In this document: positions 1,096-36,397 of the stretch, piece by piece
How positions within the stretch are numbered: position 1 is the first letter of the stretch
Layout: each line of letters opens with the position of its first letter
Notes under the pieces: generated by a model
Told to the model about the DNA's origin: nothing
Seen by the model: only the letters and a program-made list of their open reading frames with translations
Database searches by the model: none
NCBI RefSeq assembly: GCF_964204645.1
Contig: NC_134033.1
Location: 8,440,655-8,504,654, forward strand
DNA from: Tubulanus polymorphus
Lineage: Eukaryota; Animalia; Nemertea
DNA length: 64,000 bases
Direction of reading: 5' to 3'
Made by a program: the position numbers and the translations under genes

Positions 1096-1521
1096 AGTAA
1101 TAGGAAAAGTGGGCTTTCAGATATGGAGGTCGGAGGTCGAGCTCACTCAACCTCTCTCCCTCTAGAATGAAAGCCTCAATTCCTTATTACTCTTAATAAT
1201 TTCATATAAATGAACATTATTTACATGAATTTCATTTATTTTAAAATCATTTATATGTTAATTACAAAAGTAGTGTGAATAAAGTGTGAGAAATAATTCA
1301 TATTTTAACAGATTTCGAATAAAAATATAAGTAAAATAATTAGATTTTTAAACATAAAAGTGTGAGTAAAGTGTGAGTGAAATAACTCATATTTTAGAAA
1401 AGTGACAAGTTATTAACGAGTTGATTAAAATTAGATTTTTAAACATAAAAGTGTGAGTAAAGTGTGAGTGAAATAACTCATTTCATACCAGAGTACGAGA
1501 GTACGAGACACCTCTCATCAC
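1096..1521 (+). repeat. Left TIR of P1 (first ~96 bp self-complementary; internal AAAGTGTGAGT repeats)
   Basis: Reverse complement of 17456-17899. Confidence 0.93.
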
Positions 1522-1797
1522 AGCGAGGCGCTAGTGAGAACGGTCGATTGCTCTGTGATACACATATACAGTGAGTGCGCGTAACAACAGCTGCGCGTGG
1601 ATAGATCGATACATCGAGGTGCTACCGAGAACGGTTATTAACGCATGTACTATTACTGTAGTACAGTGATTGCGTGTCAGCTGTGCTCGGATAAATAGAT
1701 GCTGTGAGGCTTGGATGACAACGGTTAATAGCGCGCTTGTTATATATAAGGGGAAGTAATCCCCACTCATCACCACAAGTAATTTTTTTCCTTATAA

Positions 1798-4700
1798 ATG
1801 GGGGAGAATAAGACAGGATAAATTGATGTTAATGAAAATCAATATTATTGTACATATTGTAAAAAATACATTGATAAATCTCAAAAATCGCGTCATGAAA
1901 AATCTACAAATCATCTGAAAAATGTAATAGATTTTGAAACTCCAGAAAATTCCAATGAAAGAAAAGAACGATTAGATGATATGAAAAAAGATGAAATTAG
2001 ATGTATTGTTTGTAATGAATTTATAGTAAAAAGGAATTATAAAAGACATCTCGAATCACAAAAACACTATCAAAATTTAAATAAAAATGTTTTAGGATCA
2101 GAACATTTTGATGATAAACCTCAACAAGTAAAAAAATCAACTTCAAAAACTAAATCCATTTTAAATAAACCTTACATGGAAAATGTTAGAAATTATATCG
2201 ATTCACTAGAAATAAAAGATACAATTGAAATATTAGGAACATTACGTAGTAAAATTGGTCCTGCAGCTATTATATTTAGATTTTTTAAAGGTACAAAAAT
2301 AGAAGATTATAGTAAATTTATTGAATTCATGGAAAAATACTAGATTTGATAACAGATGTTGAATATCCAAAAATTAGTATTTCTGGGAAAGTAAGTTTTT
2401 TAAAGTCAGAAGATAAAATGGATTATGATATTCAAACACTCTCTGAAGAAAAAATTTTAAAACGCAAATAAAAGAGAAGTTAGAAAAAATATTTAATGAA
2501 TTTAAACGACATATTGAAGAAAGATATTTTGAGGGTTCTGGTTTAACATTGAATGAAATTATATTTTTAGATTTAAATGTTTATAATACAAAAATGATTA
2601 AAACATCAAAAAGTAAAACAATGTTTAAAAATAACTCAAACTTTACAACAGAAAAGGATATTAAAGCATCATCTTATATTAAAATACCATTTACAACAAA
2701 AGCAGTAATAAATATTCAAAATGAAGATAATAAATGTTTTCTATGGTCAATTATTAGTCGCTAACACCCAACTCAGGAAAATGTTTGTAGTACAACAAAT
2801 TACCAGAAATATGAAACAAGATATAAAATTGATCAATATCCAGTAACTATAAAAATGATTCCTAAAATAGAAAAAGATTATGATTTAAAAATAAATCGAA
2901 TTAATGCAATTACCAAAGACAAAAGGTGAAAATATTAAAGATTATATATTAGAAGCTTTATATTTAACAGAATATTATGATGATGAAAAAGTTATAGTTA
3001 CAAAAAAGTTATATTACCAAAAAGATGAAAATGAACATTATATGTGGTTAAAACAAATTGATTTATTCTTTAGAACAGAAAGTGATCATCATCATAAAAT
3101 TTATCTATGTAGGAAATGTTTATCTAAATTTATGACTGAGAATACATTATTAAAACATAAAGAATTATGTGATAATAAAGATTTTTGCAAATTAATAATG
3201 CCAACAGAAAAAGATTGTAAGTTGAAATTTACTAATCATAAATTTAAAAACATTGTTCCATTTGTAATTTATGGGGATTTTGAATCGTTGAATAAAGAAT
3301 TAACTAATCAAGATAGAAAAGAAATATATAATAAAAAGCAAATTTAAAAATCAATGGATAAAGGAAATGAATTAAATGAAGATATAATTCAAGATCCACC
3401 AATAATAAACACAAATGAAAAAGTTCATCAAAGAGCTGCTGCTTATGGAATTTACATAAAATCAAATTATCCTGAATTATATCAAAGTCAATATATTCCT
3501 TTTAGAGGTGAAGATGTAGTTAATAATTTTTGTAACAAAATAATTGAATTAGAAAGTGATTTTGCAAAATCATTAAACAAAAACAAAAGAATAGTTATGA
3601 CAAAAGAAGATGAAATTGATTTTAATTATGCAACTCATTGTTGTTATTGTGAAAAACGTTTTTATTCATTTGATAAAAAAGTTAGAGATCATGATCATTT
3701 AAATTCGAAATATCGTGGAGATGCTCATGAAGATTGTAATTTACAAGCTAAGAAAGCTAATTTCGTACAAATATTATTTCATAATTTATCGGGCTATGAT
3801 ACCCATCTATTTATAAAAACAATTATCAGGAAAATTGGGTGCAATTAATCAAGAAATAGAAGAATATAATGCTATGAATGGTACAAATGTAAGAAAATAT
3901 GATTTTAAACTATTAGCTAGACATCCGAAAATTATATTTCATTTCAATTTGGTTGCATTAGATTTTTAGATTCTTATAGATTTCTAGCAAGTTCATTAGA
4001 TAATTTAGCAAAAAGTTTAGTTGATATTGATTTTGTAATAACTCGACATTATTACCCAAATGACAAGATTTTAAATTATTGAGATATAAAGGAGCAATTC
4101 CTTATTCATTTTATAAAACACATGATGATTTTAATGTAACAGAATTATTAAAAGAACAATTTTATGATCAATTAAAAGAGGAGTATGTGAAAGATGAAGT
4201 GTTTAATAGAACATTAAATATTTGGAATCACTTTAAGATAAAAAATCATGTTGAATTAGTAGATTTATATTTAAAATCAGATGTTATGATATTGGCTGAT
4301 ATATTTGAAAAATTTAGAGAAGTTAATTCGAATCATTTTAATGTTGATCCTTGTTATTGTTATTCAAGTCCTGGTTTAACCTGGCAATGTGGTTTAAAAT
4401 ATACAAATGTAGAATTCGATTTATTAAAAGAACCAGACATGGTTTTATTATTTGAAAAATCAATTAGAGGTGGAATTAGTGGTGTTATGGGAGATAGACA
4501 TTTTAAAGCAAATGATGAATATAAATTATTATATATTGACGCCAATAATTTATATGGTTGGGCAATGATGCAACCTCAACCATACAAAAATCTTATATTA
4601 ACAGAAGTTGAAAGTGATGATAAAACTGATTGGGAAAGCGCAATTATTAGTTTAAAAGATGAAGCACCAATTGGTTATTTCTTTGTAGTTGATTTAGAAT

Positions 4701-7040
4701 ATCCTGATAACATAAAATTTAAAACAAGAAACTTACCATATTGCCCAGAACATTTAGCCGTAGATGATAGTTATTTAAGTGAATACCAGAAGAAAATAAA
4801 ACCGAAAGATCATGTTTTTACAGAAAAATTAATACTTACTCAAAACAATAAATACAATTATATTGTTTATTATAGAATGCTAAAATTTTATCTAAAACAA
4901 GGAATGAAAGTAAAGAAAGTACATAGATATATTGAATTTAATCAATCGAAGTGGTTAGAAAAATATATACAACAGAGAACCATATCAAAAACAGATTTTG
5001 AAAAAGATTTCTTCAAATTAATGAACAATAGTTTTTATGGTAAAACATGTGAAAATATTAGAAATAGAAATGAAATATTGTTAGTAAATAATTCTGAACG
5101 ATTGAGACATTTACAATCAAGTCCTAGACATTTAGGAAATAAAAGATTTGAAGATTATTTAACCGCAGTTAAATTAAAAAGAACGTCAATGAAATTTAAT
5201 AAACCTATATTCATTGGTTCAACTATTTTAGAAGTATCAAAATTATTAATGTATGATTTTTATTTTAATGTTTTACAACCACTTTTTGGGGAAAAGTATT
5301 GAAATATTATATTTTGATTCTGTATCAGCTGACACCCCAATATTATTAAAATGTAAAAATAAAATATTAATTAGAAGAATTTCAGAAATAATTCCAAAAC
5401 AAAATGAATGTTATATTTCGTATGGTGAAAAATTAATACAAATAAATGAATTAATGGATGTTCGGACAAGAAATGGATGGAAAAAATTAAAGAATATAAT
5501 CAGGCATAAAACAAATAAGAAAATCTATAGAGTTAGAACTAAATTAGCGTTTGTAGATGTTACAGAAGATCATAGTTTAATTAAACGAAATGGTGATGAA
5601 ACGAAACCAACTGATATAAAAATTGGAGATGAATTATTACATAAAAGATTTTTCCAAAGAATGAATCATATGTCATTTGATGAAATAATTGATAATATTT
5701 ATAATATAGAACCCGAAACATTAGAAGAAAAAGAATATTTTATCAAAGGATTTTTTATGGGAGATGGTTCAGCAGGTGTGTATAATTATGCTAGTGGAAC
5801 TCAATATTGTTGGTATTTATGTAATCAAGACTTGAAATTATTAGAAAGAATTAAGAAATTCTGTGAAGAAGTTTACTCATATAAAACATTTAGAATCGTG
5901 GATCATATGAAATCATCGGCAGTTTATAGAATACTCGTTAATAACCCTGAAGATTTTGCAATTAAATATAATGATGAATTCTATATTCATGCAATAGTGA
6001 AAAGTAATACTTCAACCAAAGAAATGATAGTTCCAGATTATGTATTAAATGCAAAATATAATTTAAGAAAATGATTCTTCATTGGATTCTATGCTGCAGA
6101 TGGTTCAAAAAGTTTCAAAAACCACAAAACAATATCTTTAGCTCAAAAATGAAAAGTTGCTATATCAGGATTGAATATATTATGCAATTCATTAGGTTTT
6201 AATTTTGAATATTGGATTGATTAAATTTAAACCAAATTGCTTTAATTTAAACCATGTAGAAAATGAGTTAACTGAAGAAGTTAAAGATTATTGGAAATAT
6301 ATAACCCGTCAGAATATGTTTATGATTTATCAACTGAAGATGGTACATTTAACTGTGGATTTCCATTAATAGCCAAAAATACGGACGCCTACATACTAAA
6401 AATCAAGACAAATGACATAACAAAAGACTTAAAAACATTAAAACATCATTTTGATTTTAGCAATTATCCCAAAGATCATGAACTATTTAGTAATGATAAT
6501 AAAAAGATTCCTGCTAAGTTTAAAGATGAATTAGGGGGTGATGAAATGATTGAATTTGTTGGGATAAGAAGTAAAATGTACAGTTATAGAACAAAAGATC
6601 ATGAAGCTAAAAAGTTAAAAGGAATAACAAAACATGTGGTTGATAAACATATAGAATTTCAAGATTATATCAAGTGTTTATACAACTCATTTGTTATGAA
6701 ACATAAAGTGAATTGTTTAAGATCAGAAGATCACGAGATGTACATAAATGAAGTTGAAAAAACTAGTTTGAATCCATTTGATGATAGAAGGCATATTTCA
6801 GATGATGGTATAAAAACATTACCTTATGGTTATCAAAATGGATCAATATCATCAAACTCGAAATCACTACTTGTTTCTTCTTTTTCATTTAATTGTTTTT
6901 GTATAATTTGTTTAGGTTCTCTTATCTTGTACCTCATTTCATCTCGCTCTCTTTGTTTCTTTTTGTTCGTTAATTCATCAAATGAATTTATAATATCAAT
7001 GTTTAAAAAATTAACAATCTTATTTAAAAAGAATTTATAA
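1798..7040 (+). pseudogene. polB: Protein-primed family B DNA polymerase of P1 (N-terminal Zn fingers, putative vOTU, EndoVII-like insert, exonuclease, polymerase), intein-containing; stops and frameshifts
   Basis: Fragments with VIYGDFES, FHNLSGYD, YLKSD, YIDANNLYGWAM, KLMNNSFYGK and YFD/TDA; collinear with P2 PolB; the true C-terminus probably lies near 6830. Confidence 0.93.
5319..6380 (+). mobile_element. Intein with LAGLIDADG homing endonuclease in PolB motif C (degenerate)
   Basis: YFD|SVSADTPILL (block A), VDVTEDHSL (block B TxxH), FIKGFFMGDGS and FFIGFYAADGS (two LAGLIDADG motifs), YVYDLSTEDGTF (block F), LIAKN|TDAY; 1062 bp, net in frame; absent from P2 (YFDTDSY). Confidence 0.93.
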
Positions 7041-8128
7041 TTAATTGAATCTGTTATTCTATTATCCACATAATATTTTAATATTTGTTTGAATGTTTCT
7101 TTTATATTTTCCATATCTTCTTCTGTTAATTTAGGTTTTTTATAATAATCGTTAAATAATAAATATAAATACATTTTCTTTTCTTGTGTGTTAAATGTTG
7201 ATGGAATAATTGTTTTTATTATATCTTTTTTTAGTCATTTCACCATTTTCATTTTCTATTATTTTCATTTTTTCAAGCCATTGCTTATATTCTGGTGTAT
7301 GATCTTCCATAGAAAATATATCAAATATTTCATCTATATATTTTAATTTTTGTTCTATAAGAATATCTCTAGTTTCTTCATCACCCCATAAATTCTTTTA
7401 CCATCCACATTCATTACAAAATATCACAGGACCTTCTTGTCTTAAGTACTCATAAATACATTGTGGGCATTTCTTTCTATCATAGCTTGGTAATAGATCT
7501 TCATTAAGCTCTTGGTATTTCCTTACGTTTTCTTTATGTTTTATTGTTCTATTATGTAGATTTAAATTACTTGTTGTAATAATAAATTTACAATATTTAC
7601 AATAATATTTTTTTCTTACTAATTCATTATATTGTTTATCTAACTTTTTAAGTGTTTCTTTATTATCTGGTAACGTTTTCCATATTTTATTTTTTCTAAT
7701 ATATTATTTTTTCTTTCATTGAATTCTGTTTCAAATTTATAAGAAATTTTATCTATATGTACTTTACGAAATTGATGATTCTCCCAATCTTCTATATTTT
7801 CAGGGCTATATTTTATTCGACAATGCTCACAGAAATGATCTTTTATATTATTCTTATCATAGAATAAGAAAGGTCTTTTCCAAATAACTTCAGGTTCACA
7901 TTCAACAGAATTACTATTACTTTCGTTACAATCAACATTAACCGTTGTGTCATTAATTTTACACTTCTCTGAATGTTTTTTAACATAATTTCTTGAGAAT
8001 AATTTATTACAATTTGGGCAGTTTATTTTAGGGGGTTTATAATTTTCATCATGTTTTTTCATATGTCGAGCCATATTACTTTTTCTTAGAAGTTCACCAC
8101 ACATTTCACATGGTATCTTCGCATCCAT
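6833..8128 (-). pseudogene. P1 accessory multi-zinc-finger protein (probably one frameshifted gene)
   Basis: CEMC..HMKKH, CPNC..HSEKC, CEHC..H..H and YCKYCK..H..H motifs; ORFs 7640-8128 and 6833-7174 appear joinable through frameshifts. Confidence 0.6.
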
Positions 8129-8196
8129 TTATTTAGGAAAAATTTTATTAAAATTAATTTTTAGTGATGGGCGGTAATTTTTTATGTTATAAATGA

Positions 8197-8983
8197 ATGG
8201 TAGAATTAAAAGAATACAGAATATTTGTTGATTCTAGAAGACATTCAAATTATAAATCACATAATTTATTAGTACAATTAGATAGAGAATTTAAGAATTG
8301 TGTTGATTTAAAATTAGTAAATATAAGTTTATTTAACTCATTTTACAATATATCGAATAAAACTATTGAACACAGAGCCTTTTTAATTTTTGATAAAGGT
8401 AAAAATGAATGGTCCTATATATATTATATATATTATATTATATTATTTTTATATATATATTAAATCAGGGTTATATAATTAGATACATTAGCACAAGAAA
8501 TTAATAGAAAAGCCTGGCACAAGTTAGGTAGTAATTCCGGGTTTAGTATTAGATTTTTAAAAAGTGATAGTTCTGATAGAATAAAGATAAGGTTGTCTCA
8601 TATTTAAAAACATAAATTTATGGTAAAGAAACCTATAGCTAAACTGTAAGGAATTCCTCCAGATAGATCTTTTACAAATATTGATGCTGCTACACCAAAC
8701 TTAATACCTTACACGCATTTTTATATTTTAATCGATCCTACAAAACCATTTGAAGCAACTAAAGATATAACTTGTAATTCTGGTTTATTAAACATTTTAC
8801 CATTGAAGAATGTTAAAGAATTTGGATTGCAAATAAATTATAATTAAACAGAATGTGATTTGAAACCATGCATTCCTCGTTTTAATAATTTTAGATTAGA
8901 AATTAGAAATCATAATGGATATTCAAATTGATTTGAATATCTTTCCTGTGATATATGAATTAGTTATAAGATGTAGAGAGTAA
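8197..8983 (+). pseudogene. Putative minor capsid (penton-like) protein of P1
   Basis: N-terminal IFVDSR, SFYNI and PGLYN motifs, ~250 codons, beta-rich; ortholog at 39281-40040. Confidence 0.6.
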
Positions 8984-8999
8984 TTTTTTTGATATATAA

Positions 9000-9302
9000 A
9001 TGAATATAACAGTAGGGCCGAGTATACGTTTTGGGTTTGATTTTAAACATGGTTAAGAAATGAGAATTAAACTAAATGATGTAATTACTGATATTAAACG
9101 TAAATCATTTAACAATGCATCAATGATTAATAAAGAAAATAATATTGATTTAATTAAAACACCTTTAGAGTATAATGAATTAAATGAAGATGGAATAATT
9201 GATGATATTAAAAACATATTAACTAAAATATATGATAATCATAAAAGTAGAAATGAAATAAATGTTGAAATAATCATCACTAAGATAACTAAATATTTTT
9301 AA
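9000..9302 (+). pseudogene. Conserved small P1/P2 hypothetical protein (premature stop)
   Basis: MNITVGPS...; ortholog at 38979-39263. Confidence 0.7.
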
Positions 9303-9326
9303 GATAGTAATTTTTTTGATTAATAA

Positions 9327-9548
9327 ATGAGTGATAATAAGTGGATAATAACTGGATTATATAATGGAGCATTACTATCAGTTGGAACTGTTGGTTATTC
9401 AATGGTATTAAAAAAAGTATTAAAAATGGGAAGTGTTAATGTTGATAGATTTTATATAAATGATATTTTAAAATTAACATTAGCAGTTACTTTATCTAAT
9501 TTAACTATTGATTATTTGGAAAAACAAATATATATCCCTCCCATATAA
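9327..9548 (+). CDS. Small hydrophobic Polinton protein (73 aa)
   Basis: Near-identical ortholog at 38703-38924. Confidence 0.75.
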   Translation: MSDNKWIITGLYNGALLSVGTVGYSMVLKKVLKMGSVNVDRFYINDILKLTLAVTLSNLTIDYLEKQIYIPPI

Positions 9549-9576
9549 GAAGTGTATAATTTTTTTTGTTAAATAA

Positions 9577-9999
9577 ATGGCTTCTGCAATTATAACTATT
9601 ATAGGATCGGCAGTTGTTAACGCTTTAGCATTTACAGGTGGTGGTTATTTATTTAAGCATATTGATAAAAATGGTTCATTATCAGAACAAAAAAGACATA
9701 ACTTAGCATTAGAGAAATATAATTAAGCTGCAGAAGAATATAGAGAAAAAAGACAAAACTATATGGATTACATCAATAAAGAATTATATGATCAGAAGAT
9801 TTCACATAGAGATTTTCAATCAGTCGATGATGCAATGAGTTTATATAACGCGGTAACCAATAAAGAAAAATTACATCTATACAAACCTAAATTATCAGAT
9901 TATTATACCCCAAGTAAAGAACAACAGAAATATGAAATAATTTGGATTTTAGGTGGAACTGTTATTATTATATTTGTAGCATATAAATTTACTAATTAG
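9577..9999 (+). pseudogene. Small Polinton protein with hydrophobic N-terminus and C-terminal TM helix (one stop)
   Basis: MASAIITIIGSAVVNALAFTGGGYLF...EQKRHNLALEKY; ortholog at 38261-38678. Confidence 0.75.
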
Positions 10000-10019
10000 T
10001 AATTATTTTTGCTAAATAA

Positions 10020-10454
10020 ATGGATGATAAATTTGATAATATTGATATTATTCCTCATGATATAAATAAAACTAATTTAAAAATATATTTAGAAAAACAA
10101 ATATTAGAATTTGAAAGTGACTTAAAGATAAAAAAGAAAGAATATTTAAAAAGTAAAATTATATATTATTTTATTATCAGTGGTTCAGTTACAATTAGTT
10201 CTGTAATAACATTTCTAGCAATATTCAGTCCATTAACACCTTTAGCTATATCAATTGGTGTGTTAGGATTATCATCAAGTGTTTTAACTGGTATAAGTTC
10301 AAAATTAAATATAAAAAGTAATAAAGATAAAATTACAACTAATATAAAAGAAATTAATAAATTGAAAAATACACTAGATTATATAATAAGTTTAAATGGT
10401 CATATTAGAGTTGAAGAACAAGATAAATTATTAAAAGAATTAATAGATTATTAA
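10020..10454 (+). CDS. Polinton membrane-associated protein (two hydrophobic helices between coiled coils)
   Basis: Intact 144 aa; ortholog at 37806-38240. Confidence 0.75.
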   Translation: MDDKFDNIDIIPHDINKTNLKIYLEKQILEFESDLKIKKKEYLKSKIIYYFIISGSVTISSVITFLAIFSPLTPLAISIGVLGLSSSVLTGISSKLNIKSNKDKITTNIKEINKLKNTLDYIISLNGHIRVEEQDKLLKELIDY

Positions 10455-10470
10455 TTTTTTTATTATATAA

Positions 10471-12545
10471 ATGGGGTTTCCAAAAGCTTTCCAATATAAT
10501 AAATAAATTAAATATAATATTCCTGCAATAGATTTTAATAAAGGTATTTCATATAAAAATTTTGTTTTAAATTCATTAACTAATTTAGAAATTTATGTTA
10601 CTGAATCACAGTTTTTTTATTTCTAAAATGGAAAATATATTTAATGCGTATGAAATTACTTTTACTGGAGATGAATATCATATATATAAAGTAAAATCTA
10701 ATATGAAATATTGGCAGAATCAATTAAATTTTGCTGTTTATTGTGCAACAACTGGTTGTGGTATAAGTTGGAATGATCATTTAAATAACTTAGATAAAAA
10801 TTTGAATTATTCTGATTTAAAGTTAATTCACACAATATTTAGATTTCACGCATATTTTCAAATCAGAATAATATTAAATGAATTAGAATGTCCTTTGATC
10901 TAAATATTTTAAAGAATTGGACAATAATATTAATCTATCTAAGTTTTATAAAATATGTAATGAATTTAATATAAATATTAATGCCGATTTTAGAGCGCAT
11001 GGTAAATTACAAGGTATTGGTGAACAGTATGAAATAAAAAGAATTGATTATATGCATAAAATTCGAGCTTATCATAATTATAAAATTGATAATAATAATG
11101 GTTGGATTAATTTCATTTTAGAAGATAGTGAAGGTTTTACTAAAGCTGGAATACAAAGGATAAATCAATCAATTAGAACTTATTTAATTTGTATTTTAGG
11201 TGCGCAAGTTGAAACAAGATCACCAATAGTTGGAAATGATAACACATCATTTGATACACAGAAACAATCTAAAGTATTATTTGAAGATTCAATTCATAAT
11301 GATAAAAAAGATCGATTCCAGAAAACATTGTAAGATATCAAAATTATTTAGATAAATCACATATTAGATTAAATTATTATATAGGCCCTAATCTATTAAT
11401 TATTTCTAATGATTACTGAATCACAGTTTTTTTATTTCTAAAATGGAAAATATATTTAATGCGTATGAAGTTACTTTTACTGGAGATGAATATCATATAT
11501 ATAAAGTAAAATCTAATATGAAATATTGGCAGAATCAATTAAATTTTGCTGTTTATTGTGCAACAACTGGTTGTGGTATAAGTTGGAATGATCATTTAAA
11601 TAACTTAGATAAAAATTTGAATTATTCTGATTTAAAGTTAATTCACACAATATTTAGATTTCACGCATATTTTCAAATCAGAATAATATTAAATGAATTA
11701 GAATGTCCTTTGATCTAAATATTTTAAAGAATTGGACAATAATATTAATCTATCTAAGTTTTATAAAATATGTAATGAATTTAATATAAATATTAATGCC
11801 GATTTTAGAGCGCATGGTAAATTACAAGGTATTGGTGAACAGTATGAAATAAAAAGAATTGATTATATGCATAAAATTCGAGCTTATCATAATTATAAAA
11901 TTTATGATAATAATGGTTGGATTAATTTCATTTTAGAAGATAGTGAAGGTTTTACTAAAGCTGGAATACAAAGGATAAATCAATCAATTAGAACTTATTT
12001 AATTTGTATTTTAGGTGCGCAAATTGAAACAAGATCACCAATAGTTGGAAATGATAACACATCATTTGATACACAGAAACAATCTAAAGTATTATTTGAA
12101 GATTCAATTCATAATGATAAAAAAGATCGATTCCAGAAAACATTGTAAGATATCAAAATTATTTAGATAAATCACATATTAGATTAAATTATTATATAGG
12201 CCCTAATCTATTAATTATTTCTAATGATTTAGTATTAAAGATGGGAAACATAATTGGTTATAATAATCTAATTAAAACTGCAACAATAAATAATTCATTT
12301 GGATTAAATGATATAAATAAAAAGATTATTACTGCTCCAAAATTAATTGAAGGTGAAAAAAATAAAAAACATATTCAAACAACTGAAACTAAACTGATAT
12401 TAAAACTGATAATGGTGCCGTACGGCACGATATTCAACATGACATAATTAAACTAAATGATGATAATAAATCCCATGAAAATGCTAAATTAGCTATAACT
12501 TGTATAGGAATTGTTATAGGAGGAATATTATATTTTAAATTTTAA
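10471..12545 (+). pseudogene. Conserved Polinton protein (WQNQLNFAVYCATTGCGISW motif), internally duplicated
   Basis: Ortholog at 36398-37789; stops and frameshifts. Confidence 0.75.
10598..12227 (+). repeat. 815-bp tandem duplication
   Basis: 10598-11412 repeated at 11413-12227 with a few substitutions; ORFs 10917 and 11732 are offset by 815. Confidence 0.92.
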
Positions 12546-12561
12546 TTTTTTTATTATATAA

Positions 12562-13987
12562 ATGACAGAAAATATTCCATTAGATGATGTGGATACTTTA
12601 GATGACCCCGTGGATACTTTAGATGACCCCTCTGATATAAGCGATGATTCACAACCTAAAATTAGTGAAACAAGTTTTAATGATCCAGAATATAATTCTA
12701 ATTTAGCAAGACCTGATACTAATGAATATGTTAATAAAGCACGTTCAACATTGGATATTGAAAATGAAAATCCAGGTTTATTAAAAATGGAATTAGAATA
12801 TGAAGAATTAACTGAAAAATTTAAACCAATATTAAAAAATTCTGGTTTCAATATAACTAATAAAGGTATGAATTATTTAGTAAAAGATTTGAAATATTTA
12901 AATGGTGATTATTATTGGCATTTGAAAGATGACTATTATTTTAAGATATCTTCTAATAAAAGTCTCGATAAAATAATAACAAAACCAACTTTAATTAAAT
13001 TAGAACAATCTAGAATTAAGAAAATCAATAATGATGTTATAACTGATGTTACAGAAGAAGAGATAACTCTTAATAGAATAGAATTTAAACGAAGAAATGA
13101 TGATTTTTTGAAGATAATAAATGAAAATTTAGAACCAGAAACAATTCCTAAAGAAGTTATTAATTCTAAAACTAGTAAACTTAAATCAACCGAAGTTCAA
13201 ACTGAAAAACTTTTACAAAATGGGTTACTTGATGCAACAGATCAAGAATTAGAAGATTTAAATATATTTTCTGATGAAGCAATTAGAGAAATTATTAGTA
13301 TAAGAAATGAAGCTGATAAAATTGCACATAATAAAAGTATAAGAGATATTAAAATTATATTTTAGAAAAAGAATTGACTAATGCAAATGAAGAAATAGAA
13401 CAATTAAAGTCTGATTTAGAACGACAAGTAATTGATAAAATAGAATATAGGCAAAAGAATTACGTTTAGAAAAAGAAATTGATAATTTAAAAGATAATTT
13501 AGAAGTACAGAAAGGTGAAAGAGATATATTATTAAAAGAATTTAGAAATAATTTTAAAAGGTTAAAAGATGTTTTCAAAAGATATCTAATAAAACCAAAT
13601 TCTAAAATATCATTGAAAGATAGAATAAGATTATTATTTAAATTAGACGGTATAACAATTCTTTCAATTCTAACAGCTGTAACTATGGTATTTACAACAA
13701 TAGGTTTAGCTATATCAAATTCATTGAAATGTACTCCTACTCCAAATAAACCGGATAAACCCCCAAATGATAATAATTCTATACAAGATAAAGTTAAGGA
13801 TGGTTTGAAAAAATTAGCAAAATATTTATGGGAACTATCTAAAAAATCTGCTGCAGCTTTACCCGGAGTTATTGCATCAATTGTTGGTTTTGTTTTTAAA
13901 TCTGCAGGGAATATTCTTAACTTTGCTGCTGAACATATTATTTTATTTTTAATTACAGTTGTAAGTGAAATTATTTTTGTTAAATAA
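12562..13987 (+). pseudogene. Large acidic/coiled-coil Polinton protein with C-terminal hydrophobic segments
   Basis: Ortholog at 34917-36381; frameshifted. Confidence 0.7.
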
Positions 13988-14735
13988 ATGAGTGGGAGTT
14001 ATATAAGTCCTTCTAAGAATTCTAGAATATCTAATGCTATTAAAGCAGAAAGATCACATCATATAATTACTCATAATCCTTCAAATATTAATCCCGATGA
14101 AACTTTATATGTTAGAATCCCTAGATTAACACAAAATACTTTTTATGTTCCAAATAGTATTTATTTATCAGCTGATATAAAAGTAACCGGGTAATAATAA
14201 TAATTATGTTGTTGATAATGTTGGAAGATATTTGATTAAAAAATTAACTATAAAGATTGGTCCAGAAACAGTTTTCTCATTAGATGATTATAATTTATTT
14301 ATGCATTATAAAGATTTATGGTTAACTAAAGAAAATAGAAATAATATGATATTTCAAGGCATCCAATCAGAAAACCAAAATAAATTAAGATCTGAAGCTA
14401 ATAATGCAGTAGTAGCCAATGACGTAGATAGTTTGATTAAAAAGATTTATGGAAGCAAATATAAAATTCCATTAGACTTTGAATTGATAAATAATAATGC
14501 ACCTTTATATAAATACGCAATTCAAGAAGATGTCATATTCGAAATAACATTTGCTCCTGTAAATTGTATTGTCTAGCGTTGTTAAATATATGGGTTATAA
14601 ATTATCGAATATATGTTTAGAATATGATACAGTAACTGATGAAAATATTGCTAACTCAATTCAAACTCAATGCAATCAAGTATTTTCATTATTATATGAT
14701 TATATTGATAAATTTAAAACTGTAACTGTAAAACT
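13988..14735 (+). pseudogene. Major capsid protein of P1, 3'-truncated
   Basis: Matches the N-terminal half of the P2 MCP up to YIDKFKTVT, then joins the integrase. Confidence 0.8.
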
Positions 14736-15620
14736 ATGGTAAGTTATGTAGATCAACAGTGGCAAGGAGATTTAATTGATATTAAAAATGTTAAGAAAGA
14801 TAATGATGATTATTGGTGGATCTTAAACATAATTGATATTTTTTGTCGTTATGTATGGAGCTTCCCACTTTATAGAAAAGATGCTGCACAAACATCACAT
14901 GTTTTAAGAAAATTTCTTTCAGGTGGTAAACTAAAGCCAGAAAAAATTCAATTTGATGATGGAAAAGAATTTGATAATTCATCTGTTCATGGACTCTTAA
15001 ATGTTCATAATATTAAATATTTTTCAACAAAATCAGTTAAAAAAGCAGCAATTGTTGAACGATTTAATAGAACATTGAGAACAAGAATATCAAAATATTT
15101 CACAGCAAATAATACTTATAAATGGATTGATATTTTACCGAAATGGATAAATGGTTATAATAATTCTTATCATTCTTCAATTGGAATGAAACCTATTGAT
15201 GCTAGAAAACCTGAAAATGCTGAAATTGTTTGGAATAATTTATATGGGGCATTTCTTGTAGATGATTTTGGTGAACCTAAATTCAAAGTTGGTCATAATG
15301 TTAGAATTTCTAAATATAAAAAGATATTTGATAAAGGTTACGATCGAAATTTTACTAGGGAAATATATAAAATAAAAAAGGTAATAACAACAAAACCATA
15401 TGTCTATAAATTAGAAGATTTAAGTGGTGAAGAAGTTGACGGATATTTTTATGAAGAAGAATTAAGTTTAAGTACTGAAAATCTGGAACAAGAATATAAA
15501 ATTGAAAAAGTATTAAAAACAAAAACTATTAAAAGAAAAAAATATTCTTTAGTAAAATGGGTTGGATGGCCAGATAAATTTAATGAATGGATATTATCAA
15601 GTAAAATTAAAAATATATAA
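14736..15620 (+). CDS. int: Retroviral-like (rve) integrase with C-terminal chromodomain; N-terminus deleted
   Basis: WQGDLID, IDIFCRY, QFDDGKEF, VERFNRTL (DDE); YKIEKVL..YSLVKWVGWPDKFNEWI chromodomain. Confidence 0.9.
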   Translation: MVSYVDQQWQGDLIDIKNVKKDNDDYWWILNIIDIFCRYVWSFPLYRKDAAQTSHVLRKFLSGGKLKPEKIQFDDGKEFDNSSVHGLLNVHNIKYFSTKSVKKAAIVERFNRTLRTRISKYFTANNTYKWIDILPKWINGYNNSYHSSIGMKPIDARKPENAEIVWNNLYGAFLVDDFGEPKFKVGHNVRISKYKKIFDKGYDRNFTREIYKIKKVITTKPYVYKLEDLSGEEVDGYFYEEELSLSTENLEQEYKIEKVLKTKTIKRKKYSLVKWVGWPDKFNEWILSSKIKNI

Positions 15621-16247
15621 ATGAATAAGGAATTATTTATATTTGAACCTCATAATATGTTAATTTCTGGTGTAACAAATTGTGGAAAAACTTATTTTAT
15701 ACTAAATTTATTAGAAACTATTTATAAAAACTTTTTTGATAATATAGTATTATTTTGTCCAACATATGAATTTAATCAAACTTATGATAGAAATATTACT
15801 ATAAATAACAAATTTATTATATTAGATCCTTAAACAGTTAAAGACAATTTAGATAATTGTATTAAAATAACAATTGATATATATAAAGGATCTAATACAT
15901 TATTTATCATAGATGATTGTGCAAATTTACATGATTCAAAAATTAGAGAGAGTGAGTTATGCTATTTAGCTTTCTCTGGGAGACATTTTGGGATAACAAC
16001 TTGGGTTTTAAATCAAAAATATAATTCAATTGTAAAAGACTTTAGGGAGAATATAAGATTTCTAGTTTTATTCTACAATAAAGATAGGAAATCGATGAAA
16101 AATGCGCTTGAGGAAAATGATATTATTCCACATGATTTACATAATGAATATATGGATAAATTGAAAAATAATAAACGATCAAAATTACTATTTCGATTAC
16201 AACACCCATTTAAATATGAATTTATTCAAACTCAACTAGCTTGTTAG
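15621..16247 (+). pseudogene. A32-like genome-packaging ATPase of P1 (one premature stop)
   Basis: Walker A GVTNCGKT, Walker B FIIDD, GRH; stop at 15831. Confidence 0.88.
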
Positions 16248-16490
16248 TCTAGTTGAATTCTAGTTTTTGGTAGTTGGAAAAAAATCAAATAAAAACAACA
16301 ATATTTCAACTAGCTTGTTAATCTAGTTGAATTCTAGTTACATTCTAGTTGAAATCTAGTTGTTAGTAGTTGAAACAAAAATCAAATCTAATTCAACAAG
16401 AAATAAATAAAAACAACAATATTTCAACTAGCTTGTTAATCTAGTTGAATTCTAGTTACATTCTAGTTGAAATCTAGTTGAATTCTAGTT
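16232..16490. repeat. Tandem array of CTAG-core motifs (TCAACTAG / TTCTAGTTGAA)
   Basis: Three degenerate longer units, each built from ~11-bp subrepeats. Confidence 0.8.
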
Positions 16491-16522
16491 GCAACAACAC
16501 AACTAATTTGTTTGTTATGTAA

Positions 16523-17098
16523 ATGGGAGGTGAAAAGAAAATAAAATCTAAAAATGGTGATGTTCCCATTGAAAAAACTTTAGATGATTTAGGAATAACA
16601 GAAACAAAATTAACTCCAGATGATGGTGCTTTAAATAATGTTACAACAAATAATAATTATGAATATTATCTTTATTGCAAACATCAATTAGAAATATTAA
16701 TAGCATCTGGGAAATGTAAAAATTTGACTTATAATGAATTAGATACAATGAAATCAGATGGAATTATTAGATTATTTAAGATTTATGAAACCGCGAGAAC
16801 AGCTAGAATTAATGATGCGATATCAGAAAATGTAGTAAAAGGTTATAGTAAATTATGTAATTATATGCTGCCAATTCAAGATGAAAATAGATTATATGCC
16901 GATTTGAAAAATTATTATTTAGTTATGACTGAATTGAATAAATGGATTGGATATTTATCATTTCAATTAGGTGGATTTATGACATTATTATCAACTGGAG
17001 TTATAACATTTTCAAATATTGAAAGTAAAAATATTTCTATAATAAATGAGCAAGGTGGAAGATGTGAAGAAAAAACCGAGAAGTCCGAAACAAATTGA
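16523..17098 (+). CDS. Conserved Polinton hypothetical protein X
   Basis: IEKTLDDLGI and YEYYLYCKH shared with 29688-30296. Confidence 0.75.
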   Translation: MGGEKKIKSKNGDVPIEKTLDDLGITETKLTPDDGALNNVTTNNNYEYYLYCKHQLEILIASGKCKNLTYNELDTMKSDGIIRLFKIYETARTARINDAISENVVKGYSKLCNYMLPIQDENRLYADLKNYYLVMTELNKWIGYLSFQLGGFMTLLSTGVITFSNIESKNISIINEQGGRCEEKTEKSETN

Positions 17099-17386
17099 AT
17101 GGTCTCGGCAATTAGAAATTAAATCACAAGAATATAAAAAGCTGTAAAAGAAAAAATAAGTAATAAAAATGGTGAAAATATTGTTATTTCTACTCCTTCT
17201 AATAATAGAATATTTGATAAATATCTATATTTATAGCTGGATTTGTAATTGTATTCATTTTGATTGGGTGTAGTTGGTATAAGAAATCAAATAAAATTCA
17301 TTATATTAATAATTCTGAAACAACTGCTATTAAAAATGAAAATACTTCTGAAATTCCAAAATTGACAATAAAAAAAAATGGATTAA
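17046..17386 (+). pseudogene. Basic small protein Y with TM segment
   Basis: VKKKPRSPKQIEW matches VKKKPRSEKQIIW of 30289-30657. Confidence 0.65.
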
Positions 17387-17455
17387 TATTTTAGAAAAAA
17401 GCAAAAAAAATAATTTTTTTTAAATTTATTGAATATCACCATGTGGGAAATGAAA

Positions 17456-17899
17456 GTGATGAGGGGTGTCTCGTACTCTCGTACTCTGGTATGAAATGAG
17501 TTATTTCACTCACACTTTACTCACACTTTTATGTTTAAAAATCTAATTTTAATCAACTCGTTAATTACTCGTCACTTTTCTAAAATATGAGTTATTTCAC
17601 TCACACTTTACTCACATTTTTATGTTTAAAAATCTAATTATTTTACTTATATTTTTATTCGAAATCTGTTAAAATATGAATTATTTCTCACACTTTACTC
17701 ACACTTTTGTAATTAACGTATAAATGATTTTATATGTTTTATAAATGATTTTAAAATAAATGAAATTCATGCAAATAATGTTCATTTATATGAAATTATT
17801 AAGAGTAATAGGGAATTGAGGCTTTCATTCTAGAGGGAGAGAGGTTGAGTGAGCTCGACCTCCGACCTCCATATCTGAAAGCCCACTTTTCCTATTACT
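17456..17899 (-). repeat. Right TIR of P1
   Basis: Reverse complement of 1096-1521. Confidence 0.93.
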
Positions 17900-26935: not shown

Positions 26936-27498
26936 AGTAATAGGGGTAATGGGCTTTCAGGCCAAAGGTCGAAGGGTCGAGCTCATTAAAAAACAAAACA
27001 TTAAAAGTAATTTAAAACTATAATATATTTTCATAACCGTGTGTATTTTATATTATAACTAAATATTTATTCTAAGATATCAATAATTTAAATTTAAAAA
27101 GCATATTGTATTAAATCAATTGGTCGCTCCACTTCGCTACAGCTCCGCTCCGCGACCAATTGATTTATTTACAATACACAAATTCATATAATCAAATATA
27201 TTTTAATAATAATAATAATTATTATTCTATTATTCAACTGAAATACACACGGTTATGAAAATATATTATAGTTTTAAATTACTTTTAATATTTTTTTTTA
27301 ATGAACTCGACCATTCAACCTTTAACCTGAAAGCCCATTACCCCTATTACTCTTAAAATAATCATATACATGAATACATTTAAATTGACAGATTATTCAA
27401 TATAAAAGTATATATTTACAACATTATTTCAATATTCATATTTGTGTGAGTAAGATTTTTAAACATTAAAAGTGTTAGTAAAGTGTGATTGAAATAAT
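26936..27498 (+). repeat. Left TIR of P2, including ~416-bp imperfect palindrome 26936-27351
   Basis: Reverse complement of ~44537-45094. Confidence 0.93.
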
Positions 27499-28249
27499 GC
27501 ATAGCTGTTTATACTAGAACATGATTCTATTTGAGCCTATATACATTTCATGTAATGAACGATTGAATAAATCTATACATTCACAGCTGTTACAGCTGTT
27601 ACTATGACGCCGAGACATATGAATCATTATTGCAAACGTGTAGAGAACACTCTAGAACCGGAACCAGATGACGTGGCAAGAAATGAACAGACGCTGTAAC
27701 ATTGTGCTCAGGATATTCTATCTATTGAAACGAAATTAGGAGTTTATAGTTTACAATTCTAAATCTTAATGTAAGTACTGTTTTTTGTAGTTATTAGGGC
27801 TATTAAATATGAAACCTCTAGATATATTTAAGTGTATTTAGTAATCTTTTAGATGGCTAGAGTTGCCGCTAATATCTTTTAGATTAATAAAACGCCATAC
27901 GCATCAAGAAGTGATAGAGAAACTCAAGATACTCTTTCTGACTGAGGAATCAACAGCAATGGGGATATCGAACCAATAGAAATTAGCACAAGAAACACAA
28001 GAATCGCCAAAAGATCGACGAAGAAACTATATAAGAATTTCAAAAACATTAAGACTCCAATGATTAAGTTTAACATTTGTTGATGTAGTTAAATATTTAC
28101 CAGCAATTGAAAAAATGTTTGTAATTATAAATTGTATTTATAGAAATCAAATGATGTATTGGAAGAAACGGCCGAACAACTTGTATAATGTATTGTGTAA
28201 ATCCGATTGGTGAATTTTTATGTTCGGTCGTTTCTATTCAGAATGAATA

Positions 28250-28580
28250 TATAATTAGGATTAGCGCATGCGCATTGATCAAAAGTGCGCACGAATGCGC
28301 GGTTTGCTCAGTGGTATGATTTAGATATTTCATGTCGGTTGTTTCTATTTACATAATTATATATTCATTATGTAAATATAATTATGATTAACGCATGCGC
28401 ATTAAGCAAAAGCGCGCATGAATGCGCGGTTTGCCTAATGCGAACACTTTTAGATATTTCATGTCGGTTGTTTCTATTTTACACAATTTACATAATTATA
28501 TATAATTATGATTAGCGCATGCGCATTAAGCAAAACCGCGCACGAATGCGCGGTTTTGCCCAGTGGTATTATTTAGATAT
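28250..28580. repeat. Three ~125-130-bp tandem repeats with GCGCATGCGC cores
   Basis: Repeated TTAGCGCATGCGCATT..AAAA..GCGCACGAATGCGCGGTTT. Confidence 0.8.
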
Positions 28581-28706
28581 CAAGGAATCGAAACAACTTA
28601 TCAAAAGCAGCGAGGAATGAAAAAGGATGACGTTGGTCGAAGAAACGGAAGAGGATTCTAAAATATTAACCAATTTAGTAAAAATACAATAATATAAGTA
28701 TAATAA

Positions 28707-29396
28707 ATGGAACAAGAACAACCACAAATTATCAATATTACAAATAACACTGCCGGTGTTATAAATATATACTACAAGAAGTGTTCTAAATGTGAATTAG
28801 ATAAATTAGCTTTAACAGAATTTAGTAAGCGTAAGATTAGCAAAGATGGTTTTCAATATTGCTGTAAAACTTGTTTTAAACTATATACCAAACAATACCG
28901 AGAAGATAACAACAAGAAGATAGAACATTATAATTATTATATGGCAGAATATATGAGAGAAAGATATCAAACAGATCTTAATTTTAGATTGAACCAATGC
29001 TTAAGATCTAGATTAACACAATTATTCAACAAAGAAACACATTCAGAAACACTATCTAATCTATTGGGTTGTTCAGATGAATTTCTCAAATCATGGATTA
29101 CATTTCAATTCGATGATAAAATGAATATAGATAATTACGGGGATTATTACCATATTGATCACGTGTTACCAATATCTAGATTTAACATGAATGATGAATA
29201 CAATAAAAAACTTATTTGGGGTTGGAAAAATTTAAGGCCTTTAGAAAAGAAAGAAAATCAAATAAAATCTAATAAACTAGATTTACAGTTATATTTAGAA
29301 CAGTTAACAAAGGCAAAGAAATTTATTGATCAATGGAACAATGATCCAAATAATGAACAATACGTTGAGGAATTTGATATCAAGGATCCGAAATGA
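28707..29396 (+). CDS. Zn-ribbon plus HNH-like endonuclease of the type seen in large DNA viruses
   Basis: CSKC..FSKRK.SKDG...CKTC; LLGCS..FLKSWI..QF; NYGDYYHIDHVLP...NLRPL...N..KSNK. Confidence 0.7.
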   Translation: MEQEQPQIINITNNTAGVINIYYKKCSKCELDKLALTEFSKRKISKDGFQYCCKTCFKLYTKQYREDNNKKIEHYNYYMAEYMRERYQTDLNFRLNQCLRSRLTQLFNKETHSETLSNLLGCSDEFLKSWITFQFDDKMNIDNYGDYYHIDHVLPISRFNMNDEYNKKLIWGWKNLRPLEKKENQIKSNKLDLQLYLEQLTKAKKFIDQWNNDPNNEQYVEEFDIKDPK

Positions 29397-29687
29397 CTTA
29401 TCTGGACAGTTATAATTACTGCTCCTAATAGATAAACGAAAGTAGTGAGATATCAAATAGAATTAGAAACAATAACTTCAACTAGCCATTATTTCTATTT
29501 TAATTTTTAATATTTTCTTTTACAATTCTTTTCAAAAGAGAATACTTTATATCGCAAATAAAAAATACTAAAAAAACAATAACTAATACTAAAATTCTTT
29601 ACCTTTAACTAACTAGTATTAATCTAAAGAGATACTGGTATCATTTTATAATACTTATATTTTTTTTCGCTTTTTTCTCTAATATAA

Positions 29688-30296
29688 ATGTCAAAGAAAT
29701 CGAGTAAGAATAGTATTGATATTGAAAAGACATTAGATGATTTGGGTATAAGTGATAATAAAGACACAGCTGTAACTAATTGTGCTCAAGTTAATTGTAA
29801 TATAGATTATGAATACTATTTATATTGTAAGCATCATCTAGAACTATTGATTGCCGGTGGAAAAACTAAAGAGTTTTTAAATAGAATCATTACTTTTCAA
29901 GAACTAGACTCTATGAAACCAGATAAAGTAATAAAATATTTTAAGATTTATGAAGAAGCTAGATTAGCTAGAATAAATGATTCTATTTCAGATGGTATTG
30001 TCAAATGTAATTCTAAGTTATGTAACCAGTTAATACCAATTGATGATGAAAATAAATTATATAGTGATTTGAAAAATGACTACTTAGTTATGACTGAATT
30101 ACAAAAATGGGTTGGTTATGCTTCATTCCAATTAGGATCGGTTATGACATTAATTTCTACTGGCGTCATAACATTTTCGAACATCAAGCCTATAGAATAT
30201 AAATCAGGTAAGAACGAAACAGATGACGCTGTACTACAACCAAACGTCGAAACAGAAAATGAATCAGAACAAAAATTAACTAAAATAAATGAGTGA
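29688..30296 (+). CDS. Conserved Polinton hypothetical protein X
   Basis: Ortholog of 16523-17098. Confidence 0.75.
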   Translation: MSKKSSKNSIDIEKTLDDLGISDNKDTAVTNCAQVNCNIDYEYYLYCKHHLELLIAGGKTKEFLNRIITFQELDSMKPDKVIKYFKIYEEARLARINDSISDGIVKCNSKLCNQLIPIDDENKLYSDLKNDYLVMTELQKWVGYASFQLGSVMTLISTGVITFSNIKPIEYKSGKNETDDAVLQPNVETENESEQKLTKINE

Positions 30297-30657
30297 TAGC
30301 GTTAAGAAGAAGCCTAGATCTGAAAAACAAATTATATGGGCAAGAGAATTAGGGAAAAGATCTTCAGAATTAAAAAAAGCTAAGAAAAAGAAATTAACTG
30401 ATATAAATGAAACACAGACTTTATCTGATATTAATTCAAATAATAATCCATCTGATTCTTCTAATGCTGGAAGTAATTATAAATTATATATTAAAATTGG
30501 ATTAGTAACAGTTATTATATCATCCGGTGTAATATATAAATCAAAATTCAAATGTGATGATAAAGATGATTCCAATGATAATAAACCTATCATACCAGAA
30601 AATAAATCAAATGATAAAGTCATTGAAAATAAACCAAGATTATTATTAATGGATTAA
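30289..30657 (+). CDS. Basic small protein Y with TM segment
   Basis: Ortholog of 17046-17386. Confidence 0.7.
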   Translation: MSDSVKKKPRSEKQIIWARELGKRSSELKKAKKKKLTDINETQTLSDINSNNNPSDSSNAGSNYKLYIKIGLVTVIISSGVIYKSKFKCDDKDDSNDNKPIIPENKSNDKVIENKPRLLLMD

Positions 30658-30663
30658 AATAAG

Positions 30664-31779
30664 ATGAAAAAAGAACAATATTTAAGAGATTTATATTATA
30701 ACCCAGAAAGTGAAGTATCATATTCTAACGTTTCAGAATTATGGAATAAAATAATTAAATCTGATAATGAAAATGGTGCCGTACGGCACCCACATGGTGA
30801 TATAAAATATAGTGAATTGAAATCATGGTTACAAAATCAACCAACATATCAAATCCACAAGAAAATGGATAAAACTTATTTAACAAGAAAAGTTATGGTT
30901 TCATATATCGATCAACAATGGCAAGCAGATTTAATTGACATGATGAACTTAGAGGAATACAACAAAGGATATTTCTGGATATTAAATGTTATAGACATAT
31001 TCAGTAGATACGCATAGTCAATTCCAATCAAAAATAAAACTGGAATAGAAGTTACAAATGCTTTTAAGAATATATTTAAAGAAGCTATTCCAGATAAGAT
31101 ACAATTTGATGAAGGTAAGGAATTCTATAACAAACATTTCAAAAAACTATTATCTGATAACGATGTAAAATATTTTTCAACACATTCAGATAAAAAAGCA
31201 TCTATTATAGAAAGATTTAATAAAACATTGAAAACTAGAATGTGGAAATATTTTACTGCTAATGAAACATATAAATATATCGATGTGTTAGATGATTTGG
31301 TGAAAGGTTATAATAATTCTAAACATAGTTCTATAAATATGAAACCTATACAAGCTAGAAAAGAAGATAATTCGGAAATAGTTTGGAATAATTTATATGG
31401 AGCATTTGTTACACATGATTTCGGAGAACCTAAATTTAAAATAGGACAACACCTAAGAATATCTAAATATAGAAAAACATTTTATAAAGGTTATACCCCT
31501 AATTTTACAGAAGAAATATTTAAAATTAAAAAGATAATATTAACTAAACCTTTTGTTTATAAATAAGAAGATCTAAAAGATGAAGAAATATTAAGTTATT
31601 TCTATGAACAAGAAGTATCACTTGTACCAAATCCAGATGAAATAGAATACAAAATAGAAAAAGTATTGAAAACAAAAACTCTTAAAGGAAAAAAGTATTC
31701 TTTGGTGAAATATAAAGGATACGATGATAAATTTAATGAATGGATTTTATCTAGTAAAATTAAAAGAATAAATGAATAA
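30664..31779 (+). pseudogene. int: rve integrase with chromodomain of P2 (two in-frame stops)
   Basis: LYYNP, WQADLID, QFDEGKEF, IERFNKTL; stops at 31015 and 31564. Confidence 0.9.
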
Positions 31780-32383
31780 AGATTTATTTATATTTGAACC
31801 GCATAATATGTTAATAACTGGAGTAACCAATTGTGGTAAAACACATTTCATATTAGACTTGTTAGAAACTGTTTATAAAAACTATTTTGATAATATAGTA
31901 TTATTTTGTCCAACGTATGAATTTAATCAAACTTATGATAGAAATATTACTAGAAATAATAAATTTATTATATTAGATCCTAAAACAGTAAAAGAAAATT
32001 TAGATAATTGTATAAAAATAGCAATTGATACTTATAAAGGATCAAATACATTATTCATTATAGATGATTGCACAAATTTACATGATTCAAAAGTGAGAGA
32101 AAGTGAGTTACGTTACTTAGCTTTCTCTGGGAGACATTTTGGGATAACAACATGGGTTTTAAATCAAAAATATAATTCAATTGTTAAAGACTTTAGGGAG
32201 AATATAAGATTTCTAGTTTTATTTTATAACAAAGATAAAAAATCTATGCAACAATCATTGGAAGAAAATCAAATTATACCTACTGAATTACATGATGAAT
32301 ATATGAATAAATTAAAGAATAATAAAGGTTCAAAATTATTACTGAGATTACAATTTCCCTATGAATATAAATTTATAAAATAA
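31772..32383 (+). CDS. A32-like packaging ATPase of P2
   Basis: GVTNCGKT, FIIDD, SGRH, LNQ; intact. Confidence 0.9.
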   Translation: MNKDLFIFEPHNMLITGVTNCGKTHFILDLLETVYKNYFDNIVLFCPTYEFNQTYDRNITRNNKFIILDPKTVKENLDNCIKIAIDTYKGSNTLFIIDDCTNLHDSKVRESELRYLAFSGRHFGITTWVLNQKYNSIVKDFRENIRFLVLFYNKDKKSMQQSLEENQIIPTELHDEYMNKLKNNKGSKLLLRLQFPYEYKFIK

Positions 32384-32389
32384 CTATTT

Positions 32390-32700: not shown

Positions 32701-32729
32701 CTATTATTTTATACAATTTTCAACCTTTA

Positions 32730-33617: not shown

Positions 33618-33649
33618 TTACATAATAAATTTTTATTAAAGTTAAAATT

Positions 33650-34896: not shown

Positions 34897-34916
34897 TTAT
34901 TTAACAAAAAAATTAA

Positions 34917-36381: not shown

Positions 36382-36397
36382 TTATATAATAAAAAAA

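Follow-up and report, generated by a model that had tools for sequence, protein, structure and literature searches.

How are the genes of Maverick-Polintons, elements for which no virion has been observed according to the available text of one account (10.64898/2026.06.19.733378), expressed? The question is raised by two decayed Polinton copies, P1 and P2, in a 64,000-nucleotide (nt) stretch of the genome of the nemertean Tubulanus polymorphus (contig NC_134033.1), referred to here as the window. Nearly every gene of these elements starts at the hexamer TAAATG, often with a run of T residues 6 or 7 nt upstream. TAAATG with its upstream T-run is a lineage-wide, promoter-like signal at gene starts. 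Judged from its sequence, there is an even chance that this signal is a late-type promoter that would be read by the polymerase of a co-infecting, poxvirus-like large cytoplasmic DNA virus.

TAAATG at the gene starts of P1 and P2

A first-pass annotation of the window had reported TAAATG at all 13 identifiable P1 starts and at 14 of 16 P2 starts, and its coordinates all hold on re-check. In P1, the hexamer lies directly at 12 of the 13 starts; the remaining one sits 4 nt off, with the hexamer ATG at 8193 and the frame common with P2 opening at 8197. The P1 integrase start is absent (junction 14727/14745 against P2) and was left out of the count. The P2 count stands as reported, the exceptions being the integrase (TAAGATG) and polB (TAAAATG). 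The T-run had been placed 6–9 nt before TAAATG; it is present, with a tighter spacer of 6 or 7 nt. TTTT-N6/7-TAAATG is found at 10/13 (P1) and 7/14 (P2) TAAATG starts, 17/27 in total, and TTTT-N6/7 precedes 2/42 (P1) and 1/37 (P2) non-start TAAATG sites, 3/79 in total. A scan of the whole window for a T-run, spacer and TAAATG gave 33 overlapping matches vs 3.4 expected, a count reached in none of 100 shuffles.

P1 and P2 are AT-rich, with a GC content of 19–27% (30–50% in the surrounding retroelements), and TAA precedes a share of their other ATGs: 36/629 in P1 and 35/680 in P2 (5–6%), or, among first ATGs after an in-frame stop, 36/436 and 35/466 (7.5–8.3%). The enrichment of TAAATG at gene starts holds against both of these nulls (binomial p of 1e-12 to 1e-16, all below 1e-11), so it is not accounted for by composition or by start calling. 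The structural blocks of P1 and P2 are ~81–94% identical; the two counts are therefore not independent, and independent support had to come from other loci. The start sites in the window are as follows.

1795..1800, + strand: P1 polB start; TAAATG, T-run upstream
8126..8131, − strand: P1 zinc-finger gene start; TAAATG, head-to-head with the structural block
8143..8152, − strand: P1 zinc-finger gene; second-class element TTTAATAAAA, 14 nt upstream of its ATG
8190..8195, + strand: P1 first structural-block gene; TAAATG 4 nt before the in-frame ATG at 8197, minor capsid label tentative
8997..9002, + strand: P1 gene start; TAAATG, T-run class
9324..9329, + strand: P1 73-amino-acid (aa) membrane-type protein; TAAATG, T-run class
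9574..9579, + strand: P1 ~139-aa conserved protein; TAAATG, T-run class
10017..10022, + strand: P1 144-aa protein; TAAATG, T-run class
10468..10473, + strand: P1 ~440-aa conserved protein; TAAATG, T-run class
12559..12564, + strand: P1 ~480-aa protein; TAAATG, T-run class
13985..13990, + strand: P1 major capsid gene; TAAATG, its TAA also the stop of the upstream gene, in P1 only
15618..15623, + strand: P1 ATPase; TAAATG, its TAA doubling as the integrase stop
16520..16525, + strand: P1 gene start; TAAATG, without a T4 run
17043..17048, + strand: P1 gene start; TAAATG within the end of the upstream gene
28704..28709, + strand: P2 HNH-like gene; TAAATG
29685..29690, + strand: P2 gene start; TAAATG
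30286..30291, + strand: P2 gene start; TAAATG
30660..30666, + strand: P2 integrase; exception, TAAGATG
31769..31774, + strand: P2 ATPase; TAAATG within the end of the integrase frame
33615..33640, − strand: P2 295-aa gene; TTTAATAAAA-N13-ATG, with TAAATG
34894..34910, − strand: P2 major capsid gene; T-run, 6 nt, TAAATG
36379..36395, − strand: P2 gene start; T-run, 6 nt, TAAATG
37787..37803, − strand: P2 gene start; T-run, 7 nt, TAAATG
38238..38254, − strand: P2 gene start; T-run, 6 nt, TAAATG
38676..38691, − strand: P2 gene start; T-run, 6 nt, TAAATG
38922..38938, − strand: P2 gene start; T-run, 6 nt, TAAATG
39261..39277, − strand: P2 gene start; T-run, 7 nt, TAAATG
40038..40043, − strand: P2 gene start; TAAATG, A-rich upstream
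40409..40434, − strand: P2 105-aa gene; TTTAATAAAA-N13-ATG, with TAAATG
44476..44502, − strand: P2 polB, first gene after the terminal repeat; TTTAATAAAA-N14-ATG, with TAAAATG

Distribution of the motif among related Polintons

Related elements were collected through a capsid alignment of 43 among 120 listed homologs, which led to 83 retrieved loci. On a capsid tree of 60 rows, built by a quick method, the motif marks two subclades: A, which includes the window elements (at least 52% identity), and B (~34%). The clade groups were drawn after the tree and the motif had been seen; another four loci, not long enough to enter the tree, were assigned by identity or by their N-terminus. Among open reading frames (ORFs) of at least 120 aa, 45/52 in A and 41/43 in B start at TAAATG, at GC contents of 20–44%. 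Other Polinton clades carry the same core gene set and have TAAATG at 1/49 starts in loci below 40% GC and at 4/227 above. The comparison with other Polinton groups that the first-pass annotation had suggested thus yields 86/95 in the two subclades vs 5/276 elsewhere. A single origin of A and B is neither rejected nor established (p-AU 0.365, on 30 of the 60 rows and a quick tree).

The same loci separate the motif from base composition and start context. TAAATG is present at 39–44% GC (6/6 starts in L060, 3/4 in L005) and rare or absent in AT-rich other clades of 26–30% GC (L022 1/7, L029 0/4, L012 0/2). Furthermore, base −3 is T in 88% of starts in A and 95% in B, the opposite of a Kozak context, and is A in 78% of starts in AT-rich other clades; the comparison is with these sister clades rather than with the host's own start context. 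AT content and Kozak context, which the first-pass annotation had named as explanations that would refute its reading, are both excluded by the relatives across the GC range and by T at −3, and an account of TAAATG through composition, context or start calling is left with next to no probability.

A different explanation is translational coupling on long polycistronic messages, with TAA acting as a stop or reinitiation signal before each ATG. Of plain stop–start overlaps, previously put at about two, P1 has two exact cases (major capsid and ATPase genes), and exact abutment is found at 5/48 tandem junctions in the relatives (1/32 and 4/16). Most tandem genes are separated by gaps, however, and the T-run spacing plays no part in coupling. 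Head-to-head gene pairs, which lack an upstream gene, have TAAATG on both strands in 19/21 cases in the two subclades (6/8 and 13/13), with gaps of mostly 14–37 base pairs (bp) or overlaps of 22–28; elsewhere, 0/9 and 0/52 pairs do so. Coupling is therefore improbable. In five loci (L063, L068, L060, L061 and L048), the ATPase gene and the 440-aa gene overlap head-to-head by 22–28 nt, and each TAAATG lies inside the coding sequence of the opposite gene.

Outside the two subclades, a distant Polinton of 9,034 bases (L136, from viral_contigs; ATPase 21% identical) has TAAATG at 7/7 starts, possibly through a separate origin. The same element has a region, which from its motif we take to be protease-like, fused to an rve integrase. 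No relatives came out of viral_contigs when it was scanned with capsid and ATPase, and motif scans of the same set gave mostly chance matches. One close relative of the window elements (L001, 10340-10981) carries a deoxynucleoside kinase gene (PF01712), also with TAAATG at its start. Capsid relatives (55%; cluster P0014) that are entered under Bartonella, as hypothetical proteins of short contigs, are probably host-derived contamination.

Proposed promoter class and candidate polymerases

In vaccinia late promoters, as described in excerpts of two reviewed sources, TAAAT overlaps the start codon and a T is conserved 10 nt upstream (PMC11980589), with a spacer of 5–7 bp (PMC5294985). Vaccinia intermediate promoters have an A-rich stretch 15–19 nt upstream of TAAA, and TG does not always come next (PMC11980589, PMC5294985). 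TAAATG serves as a late mark even in a fish poxvirus (PMC4542343, in part). The Polinton starts share the late features: TAAAT overlaps the start codon, TAAA is fixed at −3 in 88/99 starts, T residues lie upstream across a spacer of 6–7, and T occupies −13, the tenth base before TAAAT, in 67/88 TAAATG starts.

There is also a second, A-rich class. Of 19 occurrences of the element TTTAATAAAA, 8 lie 13–14 nt upstream of a gene's ATG, in 5 close elements, including P2 polB with its TAAAATG. In sequence, this class, found at polB and other non-core genes, may correspond to poxvirus intermediate promoters. AATAAA doubles as a host poly(A) signal, and 3 of the 8 genes have no upstream gene on their strand. 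Unlike in vaccinia, the Polinton motif sits on an integrating element of 17–18 kb without a polymerase gene, at ~90% of genes, and no early class was seen: an early-like motif had 12 matches, none at a gene start. Depletion of the poxvirus early terminator TTTTTNT (15 vs 38, on the coding strands of subclade A) was considered as a signal and rejected, as other clades show the same depletion of T5 runs (ratio 0.54). The late-promoter reading of the first-pass annotation thus survives controls for AT content, Kozak context and stop–start overlap, and its spacing matches; the motif is not specific to poxviruses, with TAAATG at 139/691 iridovirus-like starts.

Pfam scans covering 29, 28 and 30 proteins (the last set non-core), several of which are without assignment, turned up no RNA polymerase gene, and in this respect the elements are virophage-like. 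A helper-virus polymerase of some kind, poxvirus-like or other, is the probable reader of this signal. It is proposed that such a polymerase would start inside the AAA and slip, producing a 5′ poly(A) leader; in vaccinia, as in the virus-like elements of yeast, AAA slippage yields such leaders (PMC6211774, in part). With this leader, the unfavourable −3 T would never be in the mRNA. Correspondingly, G at +4 is kept beside that T in 33/52 starts in A and 31/43 in B (64/95 in total), as would be expected if the T were absent from the message. Each gene would own a promoter within the 14–37-bp gap, and the integrated copy would, like Mavirus, remain silent before infection of the cell by a helper. 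Only post-replicative promoter classes would be used, because early poxvirus transcription happens inside the virus's own core.

Alternatively, the motif could be a core promoter or initiator for host RNA polymerase II, giving a near-leaderless mRNA and perhaps bound by a zinc-finger protein of the element, with the poxvirus likeness arising by convergence or as an ancestral relic. The elements do encode zinc-finger proteins and integrate in the nucleus, they have no known helper, and subclade A often has the forms TATAAA and AATAAA (ATATAA 15 and AAATAA 11 of 52). In subclade B, however, the −4 base varies (T 20, A 11, C 6, G 5 of 42), so neither TATAAA nor AATAAA is the conserved unit, and a TATA box at −7 relative to the ATG would place the transcription start inside the gene. 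In sister clades, whose genes are the same, starts lie in ordinary contexts with A at −3. Neither host poly(A) signals nor TATA showed clear enrichment in any Polinton group tested, a result that favours neither reading. A host promoter is, on balance, unlikely.

Slightly less probable again is the same helper mechanism with an iridovirus-like or other non-poxvirus large DNA virus as the helper. Invertebrate iridoviruses are common among aquatic invertebrates. TAAATG also occurs at 18/52 starts in three iridovirus-like bins, and the capsid of bin G002 is closest to PDB 6ojn, which we take to be an iridovirus capsid. The Polinton signal differs from the iridovirus-like one in several respects, however. 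TAAA slides in iridovirus-like loci (141, 96, 94 and 75 of 704 at −3 to −6) and is fixed in Polintons; ATCTT is enriched upstream in iridovirus-like loci (49/704 vs 27.6 shuffled) and not in Polintons (3/54, 1/45). Iridovirus-like TAAATG starts have T at −13 in 70/141 and G at +4 in 21/141, as against 67/88 and 62/88 in Polintons. Iridovirus-like capsid genes (L261–L340) have ATCTT(G) ~15–22 nt before the start, followed by TAATA(T)AAA at a sliding distance, an arrangement that is a candidate late promoter of that group.

A possible further link to large viruses is an intein in pPolB, the protein-primed DNA polymerase B, of P1.

5319..6380, + strand: broken intein of P1 pPolB, lying at the motif-C site; P2 has none

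The insertion site is the motif-C site used by inteins of large-virus family B polymerases, and iridovirus-like polymerases share a same-site intein with P1 pPolB. The P1 intein is most closely related to inteins in other pPolBs (59%, 44–47%) and then to those in delta-like polymerases, and the intein family is spread across many polymerase types. The intein sequence suggests contact with large DNA viruses and names no poxvirus.

Several observations weigh against a poxvirus-like helper. In 80 iridovirus-like loci, TAAATG is found at 139/691 starts vs 609/14,233 internal ATGs (4%), and two isolate-type iridovirus records (L148 and L152), in a set of loci chosen by the TAAATG pattern, show T-run..AAATAAATG. 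An iridovirus-like bin carries a P1-type intein at the same site, and the large-virus relatives of the P1 intein that were classed (3 of 120) are in delta-like, not pox-like, polymerases. The elements have a chromodomain integrase, which implies a nuclear step, and, among the proteins scanned, only the A32-type ATPase was found to belong to a pox family. Sister Polinton clades are equally compact and likewise without host poly(A) signals, so compactness does not favour a helper. The poxvirus DNA compared is 20.7 kb of one entomopox-like record, with 7/18 TAAATG starts and no clear T-run, too few for a comparison of spacing, and the likeness to vaccinia is drawn from review text. Poxviruses and iridovirus-like viruses share the motif as candidate groups, and neither is linked to this host.

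Anatomy of the elements and comparison with known systems

1096..17899: Polinton P1, decayed copy; terminal inverted repeats, 6-bp target duplication AACAGA
26936..45094: Polinton P2, decayed copy; terminal inverted repeats, 6-bp target duplication CACCTC; pPolB, rve integrase, A32 ATPase and capsid gene

Both copies have the terminal inverted repeats and 6-bp target duplication of Maverick/Polintons, and protein-primed PolB (PF03175), rve integrase (PF00665) and A32-type ATPase (PF04665) score over the Pfam cut-off. The P1/P2 capsid gene gave no match in a Pfam scan. A 72% identical capsid relative scores 0.97 to clusters with PF16903, PF21738 and PF04451 in 10–24% of members, from which the P1/P2 capsid is predicted to be a double jelly-roll major capsid protein. 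An adenain-like protease, a group 1 trait, had no Pfam match among the window ORFs scanned in P1 or P2; gene content varies among group 2 Polintons (10.64898/2026.06.19.733378, in part). The ~440-aa conserved protein has a predicted fold of pLDDT 64, for which neither BFVD nor PDB gave a match at E 0.001. Reads that behave as DNA cover the element and its flank (runs X1–X3), with element contigs in X1 at a depth of hundreds to 1,700 vs ~38 for the flank; this is a rough sign of a multicopy family and gives no copy number. Run X4, presumably RNA, yielded 2 partial pieces per query, and none of these reads bears on expression.

P1 contains an 815-bp tandem duplication (10598-12230), whose copies match exactly over 300 nt or more. 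A 47–66 nt element (1249-1494, 17483-17639, 27450-27515, 44520-44585), possibly an origin or binding site, is common to the inner terminal repeats of P1 and P2, which otherwise differ. The P2 terminal repeat (26925-27376, 44660-45105) is a long internal palindrome with a GC-rich centre, resembling a hairpin end. A 155-bp tandem array at 56867-57506 contains CCACCAGGGGG, which resembles a CTCF site, a hint of a bilaterian host. Of the LINE relatives listed (at least 120), the one that bears an organism name is from a sea cucumber, at 44%, a weak sign that the host is an invertebrate animal.

Gene content and ends match those of Maverick/Polintons (Polintoviricetes, adintoviruses), for which the available text of PMC8502044 gives terminal inverted repeats, 6-bp target duplication, pPolB, rve integrase, A32 ATPase and jelly-roll capsid; sister clades with the same genes lack the TAAATG motif. 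In the text available for PMC8502044, 10.64898/2026.06.19.733378 and 10.1101/2024.03.23.586382, the word 'promoter' does not occur. No report of a TAAATG motif in Polintons was found in the literature searched, whose coverage is thin for subscription journals and excludes supplements.

Promoters matched to a helper have precedents. Mavirus-type elements carry the CroV late motif (PMC8547959), and helper-matched promoters have been invoked for algal elements (10.1101/2025.10.09.676808, PMC6401483; excerpts in each case). Like P1 and P2, the Mavirus/EMALE virophages of Cafeteria are integrated pPolB/rve elements with one motif before their genes that matches a large-virus late promoter (PMC8547959). 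Their motif is TCTA, their host is a protist, their helper is known and dependence has been shown, whereas the present lineage has a Maverick-Polinton capsid and is probably of animals. Entomopoxvirus-associated Polinton-like viruses (PMC11296320) are likewise Polinton-type and are proposed parasites of a poxvirus in an animal. They come from occlusion bodies and, in the portion of the text available, are without the rve integrase that P1 and P2 have; 'promoter', 'motif' and 'TAAAT' are not found in that main text, as available. The yeast cytoplasmic pGKL (PMC6211774, in part) are also linear elements with a pox-like TAAAN initiator, and poly(A) leaders are a pGKL feature. The pGKL elements carry genes for an RNA polymerase and a capping enzyme of their own and rely on early-like upstream elements; the Pfam and motif scans of P1 and P2 found nothing of the kind.

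Taken furthest, the poxvirus-like reading would make this widespread animal Maverick-Polinton lineage endogenous virophages of poxvirus-like viruses, with an intermediate-then-late programme copied from the helper, marking invertebrate hosts of undiscovered pox relatives, and with switches of Polinton lineages between host and helper transcription more than once; this fuller account is tentative. If it is true, a promoter readable only by a large virus would explain the silent-looking copies. Furthermore, the virophage lifestyle would extend beyond protists to a defined lineage of animal Polintons, and unseen pox-like viruses would be predicted in the hosts of subclades A and B.

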